Source of the DNA: a virus
Strand: one strand, 5' to 3'
UHGV virus genome: UHGV-0303171
DNA length: 60,072 nucleotides
Shown here: one piece after another, positions 2,925-60,072 of the stretch
How the letters are laid out: each line of letters begins with the position of its first letter
Position numbering within the stretch: the stretch's first letter is position 1
Made by a program: the position numbers and the translations under genes
Notes under the pieces: model-generated
Databases searched by the model: none
Told to the model about the DNA's origin: nothing
Seen by the model: only the letters and a program-made list of their open reading frames with translations

Positions 2925-3075
2925 GAGGAACAGTAAATGGGATGCAAGAATTATTGCTTGTATGGACAGAATGCGTGTTGTCTGGAATGTCAGATAAAAG
3001 ACCAATGCAATATTCAGTGCGATGATATAGACAGCTACGAATATGCGGTAGAATGCCCGGATTATGTAAAGGAGG

Positions 3076-3342
3076 ATGAAGATGACGTCTGAAGACTTTA
3101 TGAGAGAGCTTGAAGAAGCCAGGCTAAAAATAGAGCTGTCAAATAAACGTATTTTGTTTATGCATCCGGAAGATATCGCAATACTTGATTTGGACAAGGT
3201 GAGCAACGTTATATATCTTGTTGAAGAAAGAAGATTGGAACATGGGAAAGTAATAGCGATTACAGATGAAAAATTGAAAAGAACTGTATTGGATGCAATC
3301 AAAAACAATAAAGTGAAGTATCGCAGAGGAAGAAGGAGATAA
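3076..3342 (+). CDS. hypothetical protein
   Basis: 88-aa ORF with an AAGGAGG RBS. Confidence 0.45.
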   Translation: MKMTSEDFMRELEEARLKIELSNKRILFMHPEDIAILDLDKVSNVIYLVEERRLEHGKVIAITDEKLKRTVLDAIKNNKVKYRRGRRR

Positions 3343-22984: not shown

Positions 22985-23294
22985 TTAAGACATTTACTAA
23001 TACTTGGTTTCATATATTCGTCCATGTGACGATTCTCCACCTACTAGCGGAAAGCTGAACAAAGGGACGTCACAAGTCTCGGTAGGTTTAGCCGATTCTG
23101 AAATCGGTTCCGTCAGAATATCGTTGTTGATTGTTAATCTGACGTATAATGTGAAACTCAACCCAGTATCTTTGCGGAGAACTGGCAGTGAAAGGCTGTA
23201 GCCGAACGTGAGCACAGTAGTGGGTATACACATGAAAAATCACGGAACCTGTTTTATGAGTGGTGACAGTTCAGTAAAAACGCACCGCTGACAA

Positions 23295-23377
23295 GCCGCA
23301 TTCCCATAAAGGCATTGGAGATGCTTGCTAGGCATTCGGTCGGAAACGACTTGGAGGTTCGAATCCTCCATGCGGCG
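23295..23377 (+). tRNA. tRNA-Ser (anticodon GCU), type II with long variable arm
   Basis: Acceptor GCCGCAT/ATGCGGC is 7 bp with discriminator G. The anticodon arm is GATGC-ttGCTag-GCATT. The variable-arm hairpin is GTCG-gaaa-CGAC. The T arm is GGAGG-TTCGAAT-CCTCC. The D arm is less clean. Confidence 0.6.
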
Positions 23378-23510
23378 TTCTGAATTTCACGGTTCTCAGA
23401 AACACCCCTCATGTACGCGCCCTATGTGCAGTAAATATGCCATTTTCCTTTAGATTAGTTTTGATTCCCATAAGTTTAAAGTGATAAAAAGATTTCAAAA
23501 ACCGTGAAAT

Positions 23511-23584
23511 GCTATCATAGCTCAAATGGATAGAGCAGTTGATTACGAATCAACAGGTTCCCGGTTCGATTCCGGGCGGTAGCT
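23511..23584 (+). tRNA. tRNA-Arg (anticodon ACG)
   Basis: The D arm is GCTC/GAGC. The anticodon arm is GTTGA-ttACGaa-TCAAC. The T arm is CCCGG-TTCGATT-CCGGG. The acceptor is 6 of 7 paired, with an A7-C66 mismatch. Confidence 0.75.
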
Positions 23585-23642
23585 TCTCCAAGCGTGGTGA
23601 ACTTGGAGAGTCATCCTTTCATAAGATTTTTTCCTTTCGGTT

Positions 23643-23703
23643 TGCCGTGTAGTTCAATTGGTAGAACGTGTGAAATGTGTCGGTTCGAATCCGACCACGG
23701 CAA
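23643..23703 (+). ncRNA. tRNA-like element lacking an anticodon arm (61 nt; perfect acceptor, D and T arms)
   Basis: The acceptor TGCCGTG/CACGGCA is perfect. The D arm is GTTC-aattggta-GAAC. The T arm is GTCGG-TTCGAAT-CCGAC. Only 11 nt (GTGTGAAATGT) lie where the 17-nt anticodon arm plus variable loop should be. Confidence 0.4.
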
Positions 23704-24433
23704 TTCAAACATGATTAACTCGGTGAAGAGTGATTTTTCAGTCATGCCGAGATGCAATGGTAACAAGATAGGCTTGTTCGAGATATTGGATAAGCTAATT
23801 CTTTCCACTAGGAGTGATTCTGGTGGTGGAGATGGAAACCATCAACAATGCCTTGCAGTGTATCATCATAGAGAAGTCAAATGCAGACTCCTTGTGGTCG
23901 GCGATCAATAGACGCTTGCAGTGCAAGAACAATCCATTTAGTTCGTGGTGTGAGAGACCACCAACAGAGATGGAAATTCTCAAGAAGCCGATTTGCCTTG
24001 AAGCTGAGAAATCAGTGTATAACACAAGAAAGTCGTTAAAGTAGCGGTATGGCAAGTTCTTGATCTTATCAAAATGGTTTGAGTGGATTATAAAAACATT
24101 ACAAACAATTCTGAAAGAACCGTGAAATTTGTAGGTATCAATCCTGTGTGTGCTTAGACAGTGGTAGGAAGCCAAGAGTCGCTCTCAGAAGCTCAGACCT
24201 ATCATCATAGTGGCAGAATATGACTTTTACCATGATTGAATAAGGGGAAACCCTAATCATGTTTGAATTAAAAATCAATCAGTGTTTTAGCTGCGGAGTT
24301 CGCTGAAGCTCGGAAACTAACGTTTTGTTAATAAAAGACGTGGTTTACCGATCATATAATAAACTCCAATATTATAAAGAACCGTAGCAGTGCAGGATTC
24401 CTTACGGCTTTCGAGGTAAATTTCTTGCAGCTA

Positions 24434-24504
24434 AGGGCGTATAGCTTAAAGGTAGAGCACAGGACTTTGACTCCTGATGTACTGGTTCGATTCCAGTTAC
24501 GCTT
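24434..24504 (+). tRNA. tRNA-Gln (anticodon UUG)
   Basis: The D arm is GCTT/GAGC. The anticodon arm is CAGGA-ctTTGac-TCCTG. The T arm is ACTGG-TTCGATT-CCAGT. The acceptor GGGCGTA/TACGCTT has two terminal G.U pairs. Confidence 0.6.
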
Positions 24505-24549
24505 GTTTGAAAAAAAATTGAAATGTGAAAAGAAGAAAGGAGGGTTCCG

Positions 24550-24741
24550 ATGGGGAGAAAAATTAAGGTGCTTGACAGAGAAAAGTTTGTTGAAGCAATT
24601 AATGATTATTGCAGCCATAAAATTACAATGGATGAAGCGGCAAAGAAAATGGGTGTCTGTACTCCGACATTCCGCAAATATCTCAGAATGGTTTGGATGG
24701 GAGAACCACTGCCGGAAGAACTGTTCGAAAGGAAGAAATAG
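24550..24741 (+). CDS. small HTH protein (possible terminase small subunit or packaging DNA-binding protein)
   Basis: ITMDEAAKKMGVCTPTFRKYL is HTH-like. The gene lies immediately upstream of the TerL region and has an AAGGAGGG RBS. Confidence 0.4.
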   Translation: MGRKIKVLDREKFVEAINDYCSHKITMDEAAKKMGVCTPTFRKYLRMVWMGEPLPEELFERKK

Positions 24742-24998: not shown

Positions 24999-26735
24999 AT
25001 GGCGAGCGATTATTTGATTAAAACCGTAAAAGGGTATGAAAACTACATAGAGCGTAAGGGGATTGACGAACAGGTGCTTGATGCGTACAGAGAAGCCAGC
25101 AAAGTTGCCATGTTTAACAACAAAGATAACGATGGATTGAAAATTTCAGGCAGAGCGAGACAGTTGTACGAGCAATTCATAATGAACAGCACTGGAGGAA
25201 CATCGTGGGATTTGGAAAAATATGCATTTGAGAACGGTACATATTACCAAATACTTGATGATTTCTACGATCTTATTTTAGCAGAAGCAAAAAACAAGTG
25301 CGTTGATAGCTACTTCCGGTACATCGAGAAGAAAAGAGAACCAAAAGAGCGATTTTACATGCCTAGAAGAAAGCAATTCCTGAAAATCGGTCTTGTAGAT
25401 GGCTTACAAGGAATGCTTGATGACAAGTACGATATGCTTTTGATTTCCCTCATACCCGGCGCCGGGAAAACTTCAATAGAGAAATTCTTCCTTAGCGGAG
25501 TCATTGGATGGTACCCAAAAGACTTCAATTTGTTCTATTCTCACAGCAGCGACATCACGAGAATGTTCTATGATGGAGAATTAGATATTGTGAAGAATCT
25601 CGGGGAGTATTGCTGGCATGATATATTCCCGAATTTAGCTGTTTCTGGAGAAAATGCAAAGATGGAACAGTTCAATGTTGGAAAATACAAACCGTTCCCA
25701 TCTGTTCAGTGTACATCTGTTGGTAGTAAGAACGCCGGAAAAGTACGCGCTTCTAAATTCCTACTCGTTGACGATATGATCGGAGGAATTGAAGAAGCGT
25801 TAAACAGAAATATCCTTGATAAATTGTGGGACAAATACGCCGTAGATGCCCGTCAGAGAAAGATTCAGGACACAGACGGGAATAACTGCAAGGAAATTCA
25901 TATAGCGACTAGATGGAGCGTGCACGATGTAATAGGACGTATTCAAAAGATGTATGAGGGGAATGACCGTGTAAAAACAATTGCAGTGCCAGACATTGAT
26001 CCGAAAACAGGAAAAAGCAACTTTGATTATGAGTATAGCGGATTTACTGTGGAATTCTTTGAGGACCAGCAGCTACTTATGGACGATGTTTCATACAGAT
26101 GCCTTTACAAACAGGAGCCAATTGAAAGAGAAGGACTTCTGTTCCCAGAAGAAAAGACAAGACGGTATCTGAATTTGCCACATGGAGCACCGGAAATCAT
26201 AACTGCTCAATGTGATACAAAAGGAAAAGGAACGGACTATTTTGTGCTCCCAGTCTTGCAGAAGTACGGAGAAGACTATTATTGTGTTGATTGTGTCTGC
26301 GATAATACGGCAGATTACGAATTACAGTATGAAAATGCATCAAACATCATTGTTGACAATCAGGTTCAAGAGTGTGAATTTGAGCGAAATGCCGGAGGAG
26401 ACAGAGTAGCGCTGGAAGTGAATAAGCGAGTAGAGCAAAAAAAATGGATATGCAATATTACGGATACTCCGACAGAGACTAACAAAGAAGCAAGAATCTA
26501 TCAGTGCTCAAGCTGGATTTTACAGCACGTAATATTTAAGGATTCTTCACTTTATACGCCAAAAGAGCCGTATGGAGTAATGATGAGTCTTTTGACAAGA
26601 TATTCGGTTTCCGATAAGAAGCAGCTTGACGACGTACCGGACGTTTTTTCAAACTTTGCTATAAGAATGACGGCAGGGACAAGAGAAGCAAAAGTTGAAG
26701 CAGTACACAATCCGTTTAGAGGGAGATACATATAA
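24999..26735 (+). CDS. terL: terminase large subunit
   Basis: Walker A is LIPGAGKTS, Walker B is FLLVDDM and the coupling motif is IATRWSVHD. The C-terminal nuclease acidic residues are CDTKGKGTDYFV, EFERNAGGD and LDDVPD. The protein is 578 aa. Confidence 0.85.
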   Translation: MASDYLIKTVKGYENYIERKGIDEQVLDAYREASKVAMFNNKDNDGLKISGRARQLYEQFIMNSTGGTSWDLEKYAFENGTYYQILDDFYDLILAEAKNKCVDSYFRYIEKKREPKERFYMPRRKQFLKIGLVDGLQGMLDDKYDMLLISLIPGAGKTSIEKFFLSGVIGWYPKDFNLFYSHSSDITRMFYDGELDIVKNLGEYCWHDIFPNLAVSGENAKMEQFNVGKYKPFPSVQCTSVGSKNAGKVRASKFLLVDDMIGGIEEALNRNILDKLWDKYAVDARQRKIQDTDGNNCKEIHIATRWSVHDVIGRIQKMYEGNDRVKTIAVPDIDPKTGKSNFDYEYSGFTVEFFEDQQLLMDDVSYRCLYKQEPIEREGLLFPEEKTRRYLNLPHGAPEIITAQCDTKGKGTDYFVLPVLQKYGEDYYCVDCVCDNTADYELQYENASNIIVDNQVQECEFERNAGGDRVALEVNKRVEQKKWICNITDTPTETNKEARIYQCSSWILQHVIFKDSSLYTPKEPYGVMMSLLTRYSVSDKKQLDDVPDVFSNFAIRMTAGTREAKVEAVHNPFRGRYI

Positions 26736-46639: not shown

Positions 46640-47845
46640 ATGAAACGATATTGCAAGAACATTGATATAACAAGCAGAGAATTAATCTCAGAAGCAACAT
46701 GGAGCTGTATAAGTAATAAAATTACACATAGCGACACAATTCACATGTTCATGGAATACACAGGACTTCCGTATCAGTTCTTGATGGATGTAGCTCAAGA
46801 GAGCAGATATATGCTTGACAGCATTGTAGAAACTGTCATAGATGGAATCCGACAAGAAATACTGGAACAGAAGTATATCGTGAAGAAAATCCGTTACAGA
46901 ATCAAGAAAGATTCTTGTACCGGAAAACTACGAAATATCGGAATCCAAGATATTAAACAGCAAATTTACGATTATATCGCAGTATACGGCTTGAAAGAAT
47001 TGTTTGAGAAGAAACTTGAGTTTTATCAATGCGGAGCAGTTAAGCGTAAAGGTAATGAATTTGGAGCTGGAGCTATCAAGAAATGGCTGGCAGATAAAAA
47101 TATCCGTTGGGCATGGCAATCTGATGTTCGACATTATTATGAAAACATAAACAAAAATGTTCTGAAAAAGATGTTGAAACGTGATGTGAAGAATGACAAG
47201 CTTCTTCATTTAGTGTTCTTCTTGATTGATACGTTCGAGTATGGACTTTCTATAGGTTCATATTTGAGCCAGTTCTTAGCAAATTACTATCTGAGCAAGG
47301 CTTATATCTATGCAAGTCAACAGTTTAAGGTTCGCAAGAGGAAAGATGAAACAGCCAAGAAAGTAAGGCTTGTGAGTCATGTATTATTCCAGATGGATGA
47401 TATCATTTTCTTCGGTCGCAGCAAGAAAGACATGCAAATGCTAGTAAAGAGATTTAACGGATATATCGATAAAGAGCTAGGACTTGAATTGAAAGAAACA
47501 GCTCATTTCATTGATTTGCAGACAGGATATGTAGATATTCTTGGACGGAAGATATCAAGAAAGAATCTGACGATACGTTCATCAACATTCTTGAAAGCAA
47601 GGAGAACTTATAAGAGGGCATATTCGTATGTCTGCCACGGGAAAGAGATTCCGCTGAAACTTGCAAGAAGTTGTGTCGCAAGATACGGAGCAATCAAACA
47701 CACGGATAGCAAGAGATTTCAAAGACGATACCACATTGAAACTATAAATAAGGCAACTAAGAAAGTAATCGGACGAGCCGCGAAAGGAGAACAACGTGAA
47801 TACAATGAGATTTTCGGAGAAACAGGAGAAAGTAAACATCTATGA
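46640..47845 (+). CDS. DGR-type reverse transcriptase
   Basis: RT motifs 1-7 are recognisable. Motif 4 is GLSIGSYLSQFLANYYL, which carries the DGR hallmark IGxxxSQ. The catalytic box is FQMDDIIFFG. There are no maturase or endonuclease domains. Confidence 0.9.
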   Translation: MKRYCKNIDITSRELISEATWSCISNKITHSDTIHMFMEYTGLPYQFLMDVAQESRYMLDSIVETVIDGIRQEILEQKYIVKKIRYRIKKDSCTGKLRNIGIQDIKQQIYDYIAVYGLKELFEKKLEFYQCGAVKRKGNEFGAGAIKKWLADKNIRWAWQSDVRHYYENINKNVLKKMLKRDVKNDKLLHLVFFLIDTFEYGLSIGSYLSQFLANYYLSKAYIYASQQFKVRKRKDETAKKVRLVSHVLFQMDDIIFFGRSKKDMQMLVKRFNGYIDKELGLELKETAHFIDLQTGYVDILGRKISRKNLTIRSSTFLKARRTYKRAYSYVCHGKEIPLKLARSCVARYGAIKHTDSKRFQRRYHIETINKATKKVIGRAAKGEQREYNEIFGETGESKHL

Positions 47846-57935: not shown

Positions 57936-58462
57936 CAAAAAATGAAACAATTCAAATCATAATGATGATTCAAGCCACGTATCCTCAATGGGATGTGCAA
58001 GACAAGCAATACACCGTCAATATGTGGCAGAAGATATTCGAAGAAGAAGAATATAGCGTTGTTGAACAAGCTTTAATGGCTTACATCAGATCAGACACAA
58101 AAGGTTTTGCACCAGTCCCAGGACAATTAATAGAGAAGATTCAGTTCATTACTCAACCAAAACAGATGAACGAAGTAGAAGCGTGGTCGCTTGTCAGCAA
58201 AGCACTCAAAAGATGCGGGTATTATGCTGATGAAGAATTTGAGAAACTTCCGAAGCTTGTTCAGAAAGCAGTTGGCAGCCCTAGTCAATTAAGAACATGG
58301 GCAATTGACAAAAATTACAATGAACAGGTGACCAGCTCAAACTTCATGCGATCTTACCGAGAAGAAGTGAGAAACGAAACACTGTTCGGTAAGATGAGTT
58401 TAGTTATCAGAAATGCAATTACAGATAACAGAAATGTTGGAATGATTGAAGAGAAAGGATAG
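57932..58462 (+). CDS. G39P-like helicase loader (putative)
   Basis: IQIIMMIQATYPQWDVQDKQYTVNMWQKIF...APVPGQLIEKI resembles the loader/inhibitor of G40P N-terminal domain. Confidence 0.5.
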   Translation: MTKNETIQIIMMIQATYPQWDVQDKQYTVNMWQKIFEEEEYSVVEQALMAYIRSDTKGFAPVPGQLIEKIQFITQPKQMNEVEAWSLVSKALKRCGYYADEEFEKLPKLVQKAVGSPSQLRTWAIDKNYNEQVTSSNFMRSYREEVRNETLFGKMSLVIRNAITDNRNVGMIEEKG

Positions 58463-58467
58463 AGAAT

Positions 58468-59121
58468 ATGAGTGAAGCTATTAAATCATACAAAGGATTC
58501 AGAAAAGACATGACTTGCAGAGGTTATCAGTATGAAGAAGGTAAAGAATATGAAGAAAGCAATGCATTAATTTGTGAAAATAGATTCCATGCTTGTGAAT
58601 ATCCGTTGGATTGTCTTAGTTATTATAGTCCATCGGAAAGTGTATATCATGAAGTTGAACAGAGTGGAAAGATTTCGAAAAAATCAGGAGATACCAAAGT
58701 TGCATCAACAAAAATTAAAATTGGTGCAAAACTTAGTATTGCAGGATTAGTAGAAGCAGCTATTGAATATACGGAAGAAAGAGTCAAACAAGAAGAGGAT
58801 TCCGATGGAGACTACGGAGCATCCTCAGCGACAGGAAACTGTGGAGCATCCTCAGCGACAGGATACAAAGGAGCATCCTCAGCAGAAAGCCCTAACGCTG
58901 TCGCTGTGGCTTGGGGATATAAAGGAAAAGCGAAAGGCGTGAAAGGCTCGTTTCTTGTCCTTGCAGACTGGGAGTGTAAAGGAAAAGAATCAGATAACTA
59001 TTATAAAGAAGATATGTGGGATCTAAAAGATGCTGTGATAGTTCGTGTTGACGGAGAAACAATCAAAGAAGATACGTGGTACACGATGGTTGACGGAAAA
59101 GTTGTTGAGGTAAAGGAGTAG
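58468..59121 (+). CDS. hypothetical protein with GASSATG repeats
   Basis: 217-aa ORF after a GAGAAAGGATAG RBS. Confidence 0.5.
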   Translation: MSEAIKSYKGFRKDMTCRGYQYEEGKEYEESNALICENRFHACEYPLDCLSYYSPSESVYHEVEQSGKISKKSGDTKVASTKIKIGAKLSIAGLVEAAIEYTEERVKQEEDSDGDYGASSATGNCGASSATGYKGASSAESPNAVAVAWGYKGKAKGVKGSFLVLADWECKGKESDNYYKEDMWDLKDAVIVRVDGETIKEDTWYTMVDGKVVEVKE

Positions 59122-59123
59122 CC

Positions 59124-59342
59124 ATGAACACAGGAGAAAAGATAGATTACATGATTCAGTGTTTGAAAGTCGCAAAAGCTGAGTGGGATTACATGGCTGA
59201 TTACATTGCAAATGAACCGACTGAAAGATCAGAGCTGTGGGAGTTCCTTGATACACACAGAAGTCCGAACAAGGCGTTGATTAAGGACAACTTGAAAAAC
59301 GTGGCGAGAATGGGATTCCAGCTTGCGAATGAGGTGAAGTGA
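59124..59342 (+). CDS. hypothetical protein
   Basis: 72-aa ORF. Confidence 0.45.
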   Translation: MNTGEKIDYMIQCLKVAKAEWDYMADYIANEPTERSELWEFLDTHRSPNKALIKDNLKNVARMGFQLANEVK

Positions 59343-59500
59343 TGATGACGGTAAGAGAAGAACAGGTACTTTGCAAACTGCATGAATTTATCGATGCAAA
59401 CGATATTAATTGTGCAGAAGATGTGACGCAGCGAGATAGCATAAGTGAACAGTGCGTAGATCTTGTGGCAGAGTTGGTTGATACGCTTTGCTATAAATAA
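59342..59500 (+). CDS. hypothetical small protein
   Basis: 52 aa with overlapping ATGA start. Confidence 0.3.
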   Translation: MMTVREEQVLCKLHEFIDANDINCAEDVTQRDSISEQCVDLVAELVDTLCYK

Positions 59501-59565
59501 CATTAAATTACAGAAAGGAGACGGAGCTCCGGCCGGGCAAAGATATATCGGCTCCTTTCGAGAAG

Positions 59566-60072
59566 ATGAAACAGAGAATAAAGAAAATAAAATGTGAAAT
59601 CTTTCGAGATTCCATGCAGAACTATAAGAAATATGCAATCCCACCAGCACAGCTAATTATAGCGGATGTGCCATACAATGTCGGAAGTAATTTCTACGGA
59701 AGCAATCCAATGTGGTACGTAGGTGGGGATAATAAAAATGGTGAAAGCAAACTTGCAAAGAAAGCAGCATTCAATTCCGATTTCAATTTCAATTTGTATG
59801 AGTATTTCCATTTTTGCTCAAAAATGTTGAAGAAAGAACCTAAGAAAGCTGGTAAGCGTGGACGAAGTTCTGACGCACCATGCATGATTGTGTTTTGCAG
59901 TTTCGAACAGTTAAGCACACTGATCAACGCAGCTAAGAAACATGGCTTTGTGAATTACATACCGCTTGTATTTGTGAAAAATTACAGCCCACAGGTATTG
60001 AAAGCAAATATGCGTGTTGTAGGCGCTACGGAATACGCTTTGGTATTATACCGAGACAAACTTCCAAAATTT
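59566..60072 (+). CDS. DNA methyltransferase, N-terminal part (ORF runs off the window end and resumes in frame at nt 1)
   Basis: IIADVPYNVG is a DPPY-like motif IV. There is no stop before nt 60072 and exactly 169 codons. Continuation at 1..357 gives the HPAQKP and DPCCGSGST motifs in the correct order for PF01555. Confidence 0.75.
   Translation, partial: MKQRIKKIKCEIFRDSMQNYKKYAIPPAQLIIADVPYNVGSNFYGSNPMWYVGGDNKNGESKLAKKAAFNSDFNFNLYEYFHFCSKMLKKEPKKAGKRGRSSDAPCMIVFCSFEQLSTLINAAKKHGFVNYIPLVFVKNYSPQVLKANMRVVGATEYALVLYRDKLPKF

Follow-up and report, generated by a model that had tools for sequence, protein, structure and literature searches.

Transfer RNAs and tRNA-like structures lying flush around other RNAs serve as excision marks in animal mitochondria and in the tRNA-miRNA units of MHV68, where a tRNase Z cut 3' of a non-charged tRNA-like frees the downstream hairpin. 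At the long non-coding RNAs MALAT1 and MEN-beta, according to what Wilusz et al. reportedly found in 2008, tRNA-processing enzymes set the end of the long RNA and free a small tRNA-like RNA, mascRNA. RNase P and RNase Z read the stack of acceptor and T arms together with the elbow of their substrates, and not the anticodon arm. The tRNA-like domain of tmRNA carries a G3-U70 alanine pair, its two acceptor halves being separated by pseudoknots and a tag reading frame. Besides ROOL and GOLLD, no natural nanocages made of RNA alone are known to us. The two have been described as lying 'near tRNA islands', and co-transcription with tRNAs has already been suggested (Weinberg 2017, PMC5737381; Kretsch 2025, PMC12286853). 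By analogy, the closest precedent for the element considered here would be the t-elements of plant mitochondria. [quoted passage not shown]

The window, which is the whole stretch of 60,072 nt analysed here (UHGV virus genome UHGV-0303171), comes from a temperate gut phage that encodes an integrase and a GH25 lysin. Its large terminase (24999-26735) and portal genes are closely preceded by an array in the order tRNA-Ser, tRNA-Arg, tRNA-like, ROOL, a conserved and structured segment that we call segment X, and tRNA-Gln. We propose that the tRNA-like, which has no anticodon arm, is probably a cis-acting processing signal, with an RNase P cut at its 5' side and an RNase Z cut at its 3' side setting the 5' end of ROOL. 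The features on which the argument draws are the following.

23295-23377, + strand: tRNA-Ser(GCU), first in the array (ARAGORN and Rfam)
23384-23394 (- strand), 23500-23510 (+ strand) and 24118-24128 (+ strand): copies of the 11-mer AACCGTGAAAT
23511-23584, + strand: tRNA-Arg(ACG), 58 nt upstream of the armless element (ARAGORN and Rfam)
23642-23643, + strand: predicted RNase P site, from tRNA-like geometry; the -1 base is U
23643-23703, + strand: anticodon-armless tRNA-like element, 61 nt (sequence, fold and Rfam)
23643-23649 / 23696-23702, + strand: its acceptor stem, 7 bp, UGCCGUG / CACGGCA
23650-23651, + strand: its U8 and A9
23652-23667, + strand: its D arm, with a 4-bp stem, GUUC (23652-23655) / GAAC (23664-23667), and D loop AAUUGGUA
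23668-23678, + strand: 11-nt linker in place of the anticodon arm, GUGUGAAAUGU
23679-23695, + strand: its T arm, with a 5-bp stem, GUCGG (23679-23683) / CCGAC (23691-23695), and T loop UUCGAAU
23703, + strand: its discriminator, A
23703-23704, + strand: predicted RNase Z site; no encoded CCA, and UU follows the discriminator
23703-24274, + strand: ROOL RNA (RF03087), about 570 nt; the Rfam match itself covers 23695-24274
23703-23716 / 24255-24268, + strand: P1, the closing helix of ROOL
23708-24281, + strand: 574-nt segment, essentially the whole of ROOL, missing from five relatives (L243, L244, L245, L247 and L251)
24284-24434, + strand: segment X, about 150 nt, between ROOL and tRNA-Gln, its 3' end flush with the latter
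24290-24296 / 24382-24388, + strand: long-range helix of segment X, 7 bp, GCUGCGG / CCGUAGC
24435-24505, + strand: tRNA-Gln(UUG), last in the array (ARAGORN and Rfam)

The 61-nt tRNA without an anticodon arm is confirmed as real. The arms, the length and the 11-nt gap described in an earlier sequence-only reading match the sequence exactly, and pairing is complete in the acceptor (7/7), D (4/4) and T (5/5) stems. With RNAfold, the minimum free energy structure and the centroid are the same three-arm cloverleaf (-19.8 kcal/mol; z = -2.4, with 2 of 200 shuffles equally stable), which still forms within the folded 701-nt precursor. Of the searches proposed in that reading, ARAGORN calls neither a tRNA nor a tmRNA at the element, and the Rfam tRNA model (RF00005) aligns with its whole length at 52.2 bits, against a gathering score of 29, if 15 model positions of the anticodon arm are reduced to 4 nt. 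In standard tRNA numbering, the tertiary positions of a class I core are complete (U8/A14, A15/U48, G18 G19, G26/A44, U54 U55 C56 and A58), G46 is present along with C13-G22, and positions 27-43 are replaced by about 6 nt (UGUGAA). Measured against a canonical decoding tRNA, the element possesses the acceptor, D and T arms with their conserved tertiary nucleotides and lacks the anticodon stem-loop of 5 bp and a 7-nt loop, the linker being all that lies between the D and T arms. A strict structural scan (acceptor 7/7, D 4/4, T 5/5, linker of at most 16 nt) returned no match in three shuffles of 2.0 Mb of DNA, so that the armless fold is not a product of chance. A blastn search of the region against deposited phages gave generic tRNA matches only.

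The sequence-only reading located the element correctly between tRNA-Arg and tRNA-Gln but overlooked its neighbour: that interval measures 850 nt and consists mostly of ROOL and segment X. The adjoining ROOL scores 379 bits against a gathering score of 99.1 and covers model positions 1-574, as a full-length member of the family does. P1 begins at the discriminator of the element with zero spacer, and when the 701-nt precursor is folded, the cloverleaf and P1 form side by side as separate modules, not one unpaired base dividing them. A simple consensus scan found no promoter-like site on the + strand from 22985 to the terminase gene, and a consensus scan found no convincing terminator inside the array; this fits a single precursor, such scans being weak evidence. 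The closest deposited phage is Dulem virus 39 (L252, PP511791), whose terminase is 79% identical. It has an RtcB tRNA-splicing ligase gene (58459-59664) directly upstream of the terminase, where the window has the tRNA/ROOL array, and it therefore supplies no orthologue. As side observations on the window, the 11-mer AACCGTGAAAT occurs three times, where chance would give 0.08, and always within the tRNA/ROOL array; one copy stops exactly at the 5' end of tRNA-Arg and another lies within a conserved region of ROOL. A 401-aa tail-region ORF (46640-47845, + strand) has a weak, sub-threshold RVT_1 match (23.1 bits versus a cutoff of 29.6) and may be part of a diversity-generating retroelement.

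Real support comes from other ROOL loci. About 80 of them were collected from viral contigs by a conserved ROOL motif and confirmed by nhmmer with the window's ROOL; the sample is a single clade, retrieved by the motif and the window's own ROOL, and many of its loci come from a single metagenome. A scan of genome contigs with a 15-base ROOL motif yielded nearly all chance matches, with a ROOL at one of 120 (L134). The 76 loci with enough upstream sequence fall into 16 lineages at 80% identity, and a tRNA-shaped leader stands at the same register in 15 of the 16, its discriminator 4-6 nt before the conserved AAACAUGAU of P1; the sole lineage without one is L004/L007. T stems of 5/5 with a canonical T loop and acceptors of 6-7/7 are kept almost throughout. 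In eight lineages the leader is a canonical tRNA (Trp-CCA, Lys-UUU, Asn-GUU, Met-CAU twice, Tyr-GUA, Glu-UUC and Phe-GAA), which amounts to seven different anticodon types. In the remaining seven lineages the leader does not decode, and takes these forms.

First form: the window's armless element
Second form: a large group with C-rich loops of 8-15 nt (L010, L052, L003, L018)
Third form: a 9-nt loop (L075)
Fourth form: odd loops (L041)
Fifth form: a 70-nt insert, a skipping-rope RNA according to Rfam (L046/L071/L108)
Sixth form: a leader without a D arm (L059)
Seventh form: a miniature of about 45 nt (L113)

The leader and ROOL behave as separable modules, since their identities do not match: the window and L010 have ROOLs that are 96% identical and leaders matching at 45 of 61 positions, and L001 has a leader identical to that of the window next to a ROOL only 92% identical. 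The 3' side of ROOL is also bordered closely, many lineages having a tRNA (Ser-GCU, Ser-UGA, Asn or Tyr) whose first base lies no more than about 5 nt from the 3' strand of P1, and the ROOL of L134, from a Clostridium sp. genome, is flanked flush on both sides, by tRNA-Asn and tRNA-Ser. A loose arm-by-arm classifier applied to the tRNAs that are not leaders mislabelled many ordinary ones and was unusable as a control. Two observations concern the leaders themselves. In L071 (7108-7230, - strand), L046 and L108 the skipping-rope RNA (RF02924, 63 bits) occupies the place of the anticodon arm directly upstream of ROOL, and the tRNA-like frame around it is complete in its acceptor, D and T arms. 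In the largest non-decoding leader group (L052, L025, L015, L105, L010 and others), the oversized 'anticodon' loops are C-rich and mutually similar (CUACCCCUACCCA, CUUACCCUACCCG, CUCCCCCU), which is suggestive of a conserved pairing partner more than of free decay.

The processing model starts from four observations: the fold, the flush junction, the recurrent arrangement and the RNase Z-type context. Among the functions listed in the sequence-only reading, a processing element is the one with comparative support, from the shared register of the leaders. We propose that tRNA-Ser, tRNA-Arg, the tRNA-like, ROOL, segment X and tRNA-Gln are presumably co-transcribed, and that a degenerate, non-decoding tRNA would be kept as a 't-element' in this polycistronic phage transcript. 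Its acceptor/T-arm minihelix and D-arm elbow would be recognised by the tRNA-processing enzymes. As these read the acceptor/T stack and the elbow, the host RNase P would be expected to cut at the 5' end of the element (23642|23643, from its tRNA-like geometry) and RNase Z just 3' of the discriminator (23703|23704). The two cuts would free a small RNA of about 61 nt and leave the 5' end of ROOL at the start of the closing helix, namely at U23704 with a 5' monophosphate. Because decoding is irrelevant to such a role, the anticodon arm could have been lost.

The tRNAs of ROOL loci are RNase Z-type substrates, given that none of 205 distinct ones encodes CCA; a T follows the discriminator in 34 of 34 leaders and in 155 of 171 other tRNAs of these loci. 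The RNase Z of B. subtilis cleaves CCA-less precursors 3' of the discriminator and is inhibited by long 5' extensions (PMC1874595), so that RNase P would have to act first. Among the points against the model, P1 pairs right up to the discriminator and could hinder RNase Z, and ROOL needs no tRNA leader, that of L. salivarius pMP118 and that of L004/L007 being without one. The ends of the pMP118 ROOL, upstream of which we found no tRNA-like leader, were mapped by circular RACE, and an unpublished remark of its authors places a promoter 225-450 nt upstream, which only hints at 5' processing; lacking the leader, this ROOL is no test of the processing model.

The leading alternative is a neutral relic. 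A single deletion would have removed the anticodon arm from a phage tRNA, or from a tRNA-like that was degenerate before, and the remainder, with no function of its own, would persist only because of its place inside a conserved array. We regard this as unlikely, and the perfect pairing of the remaining arms, which the sequence-only reading took as an argument against a pseudogene, is not the reason. Taken alone that argument is weak, since a single deletion leaves the other arms perfect and a recent one in a good tRNA would look identical; the real support lies in the register next to ROOL. That ROOL exists without any leader also suits a relic.

The closest relatives are equivocal on this point. 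The armless element occurs in eight related contigs, and all eight keep the truncated form. Three of them have ROOL, with an element identical to that of the window in L001 and L248 and one C-to-U change that preserves a G.U pair in L040. The other five have no ROOL, and the armless element is joined directly to segment X, an arrangement compatible with the processing model; the boundaries of the missing 574-nt segment are ambiguous by 3 nt, owing to a TCA microhomology. Given this clean absence, ROOL behaves as a dispensable cassette. Its presence is polymorphic among near-identical phages. Across the nine contigs with the armless element, the latter has 0-2 substitutions each, and its divergence is not below that of the flanks; the close family being too similar in addition, purifying selection cannot be shown. 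Three of six substitution events break stems, as a relic would allow, and these lie in two of the four ROOL-less variants (two in L243 and one in L245), while in L244/L247 and L251 the changes are confined to the linker. The stem-breaking changes show that the element can drift, which counts against the processing model as well. It may be added that the L251 homologue of tRNA-Arg has four substitutions, all in the anticodon loop, which reads CUUUUAA, of Lys-UUU type, and looks like an anticodon switch. According to the sequence-only reading, homologues with a normal anticodon arm in related phages would have indicated a simple deletion or pseudogene. The answer is graded: close relatives are all truncated, the nearest other ROOL lineages have non-decoding leaders with loops of 8-15 nt, and normal tRNAs appear in distant lineages.

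Against a relic stands the wider comparison, in which the acceptor/T module stays intact at the same register in nearly all ROOL lineages and the anticodon arms vary freely. Armless forms also occur elsewhere, having arisen independently several times. A 58-nt armless element common to L069 (at 1140) and L134 (2763-2820) lies about 500 nt upstream of their ROOLs, and a further one is present in L250. A scan that selected solely on two common D-arm sequences and a T loop at short range gave about 14 independent armless matches, 10 of them with perfect acceptor and T stems (seen in L253, L254/L255, L257, L259, L261, L263, L264 and L266), which a relic would not lead one to expect. The armless linkers retain position 26 and a variable-loop-like NNGUC, in other words positions 26 and 44-48, so that the part lost is precisely positions 27-43. 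On the surroundings of these elements, L134 is a prophage array of Clostridium sp. AF27-2AA, and its 58-nt armless tRNA-like is unrelated to that of the window; the same array has, at 3070-3152, a tRNA-like with an 18-nt 'anticodon' loop and no ARAGORN or Rfam call. The armless tRNA-likes of L254/L255 and L259 stand in viral tRNA arrays beside tmRNA genes, of the permuted alpha type in L254/L255 and standard in L259.

GOLLD offers a second series. In L257 a GOLLD RNA (263 bits) is succeeded after 3 nt by an armless element, and this in turn by a hairpin and a terminator; the 14.9-kb locus contains no other tRNA, and a relic would hardly be the only tRNA-like left between GOLLD and its terminator. 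A GOLLD motif scan gave 14 distinct 3' flanks, in which the GOLLD end GUAAUCUCAGCGU is followed 6-8 nt on by a tRNA-shaped element. This is tRNA-Phe (four flanks) or tRNA-Trp, the same tRNA-Phe with its anticodon arm deleted in L257, and, in the L269 group and L273, the acceptor/T frame of that tRNA enlarged by an insertion of about 65 nt. The GOLLD 3' series is an independent replicate of the ROOL leader series.

Segment X, against which the element abuts when ROOL is missing, was found in about 30 distinct ROOL loci. In its long-range helix one base pair changes in a compensatory way, with U-A in place of C-G in 3 of 10 sequences; its fold has z = -3.0, UUUUAGCUGCGG and AAAGAACCGUAGCAG are invariant and its 3' hairpin is variable. 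It has no Rfam match, and we consider it a candidate new RNA motif. Its AAAGAACCGUAGCAG is related to the 11-mer AACCGTGAAAT.

Other readings would give the element a part in the working of the cage, or a life apart from it. It is quite improbable, in our estimation, that the armless tRNA-like is a working partner of the nanocage RNA, either retained on some ROOLs or released as a CCA-tailed mini-tRNA decoy. In the retained version, up to 8 tRNA elbows and acceptor ends per cage could recruit or sequester host factors, for which RNase P, the CCA-adding enzyme and tRNA-targeting defence nucleases could be candidates. If this were true, the presence of degenerate tRNA-likes beside ROOL as well as GOLLD would suggest that the cages have a function centred on tRNA. 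That the uncleaved element simply stays covalently on the 5' end of ROOL is very unlikely. It could there be stacked on P1, outside the octameric cage, offering elbows and acceptor ends to tRNA-binding factors, or it could keep 5'-to-3' exonucleases away from that end. The lack of a spacer between acceptor stem and P1 would favour coaxial stacking, cargo RNAs on the 3' end of ROOL have been reported to be displayed radially with the cage undisturbed (PMC12515178), and a covalent link to tRNAs has been proposed in the case of GOLLD (PMC12286853). Nevertheless, canonical tRNAs at the same position must be released to work, and in its sequence the junction has the marks of an RNase Z site. A 5' tRNA is required neither by the Rfam ROOL model nor by the solved structures, and leaders of very different size and shape are tolerated.

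There is likewise only a slim chance that the freed RNA of about 61 nt acts in trans as a tRNA mimic, a role compatible with the processing model (compare mascRNA), for example by decoying or titrating host enzymes or anti-phage nucleases that bind the acceptor arm, T arm and elbow, or by being charged in the manner of a minihelix. In favour of this, the element has kept every core tertiary position of the L-shape and is still present in relatives that lack ROOL, and several phage loci have armless tRNA-likes outside the surroundings of ROOL and GOLLD; against this, the independent armless elements share only generic tRNA features, no known synthetase identity set is present (the pair C3-G70 makes it not Ala-like), a decoy for anticodon nucleases would require the missing arm, and no linked protein partner was found. 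Protein coding was set aside, as the ORF that overlaps the element (23594-23911, 105 aa, GTG start) lies almost wholly inside the ROOL match.

If flanking tRNAs and armless tRNA-likes do set the ends of the cages, as the processing model holds, this would explain why ROOL and GOLLD reside in phage tRNA arrays. Exact mature termini would be predicted, here a ROOL that starts at U23704 with its 5' monophosphate, and RNase P, RNase Z and stem mutations would provide a genetic handle for studying or producing cages in cells. Processing signals of the t-element and mascRNA type would be extended to bacteriophages, and short phage 'tRNA pseudogenes' may mark the borders of undescribed structured RNAs, segment X being an example.

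Compared with the published accounts of ROOL and GOLLD (PMC5737381, PMC12286853), the RNAs and their general neighbourhood are the same. The accessible part of that literature speaks of proximity to tRNAs only, with no fixed-register flush junctions, no armless or degenerate leaders and no processing by RNase P or RNase Z. The tRNA-like domains of tmRNA and YrlA resemble the element, since both have acceptor and T arms and neither has an anticodon arm that decodes. Membership of either family was rejected: the G3-U70 pair and mRNA-like insert expected of a tmRNA are replaced by C3-G70 and an 11-nt linker, with no tmRNA found by ARAGORN or Rfam, and the YrlA model (Y RNA-like, RF02553) reaches 22.7 bits against a gathering score of 69, in a match spanning tRNA-Arg to the element that is due to generic tRNA likeness. 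With tRNA punctuation the locus shares tRNAs and tRNA-likes set flush on both sides of other RNAs, but those systems are eukaryotic or organellar, and the MHV68 tRNA-like is also a Pol III promoter, for which there is no bacterial counterpart. The likeness to mascRNA is that a long non-coding RNA is joined to a tRNA-like module of about 60 nt whose anticodon arm is reduced, and the GOLLD-armless-terminator unit of L257 has the same 3' layout. The polarity differs: mascRNA lies 3' of its lncRNA, whose 3' end is made by RNase P, whereas the window module lies 5' of ROOL, so that the 5' end of ROOL would be the work of RNase Z. The mascRNA-menRNA family of Rfam has no match at an E-value of 1 or below in 23200-24600, and the analogy is one of function alone. 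The likeness is greatest with t-elements. A mimic of the acceptor and T arms is kept and the anticodon or D arm is gone, both architectures being present here (anticodon-armless in the window and D-armless in L059). The flush junction with the closing helix of ROOL, here and in 15 of 16 lineages, would place the element at the terminus of another RNA. The differences are that t-elements belong to an organelle, flank mRNAs and have been shown to be cleaved, whereas the present element belongs to a phage, flanks a large structured non-coding RNA and would be cleaved by inference; the two have no common ancestry. The element would therefore belong to a known kind, that of tRNA-like cis processing signals, and its novelty would lie in the phage setting and in the association with a nanocage RNA.
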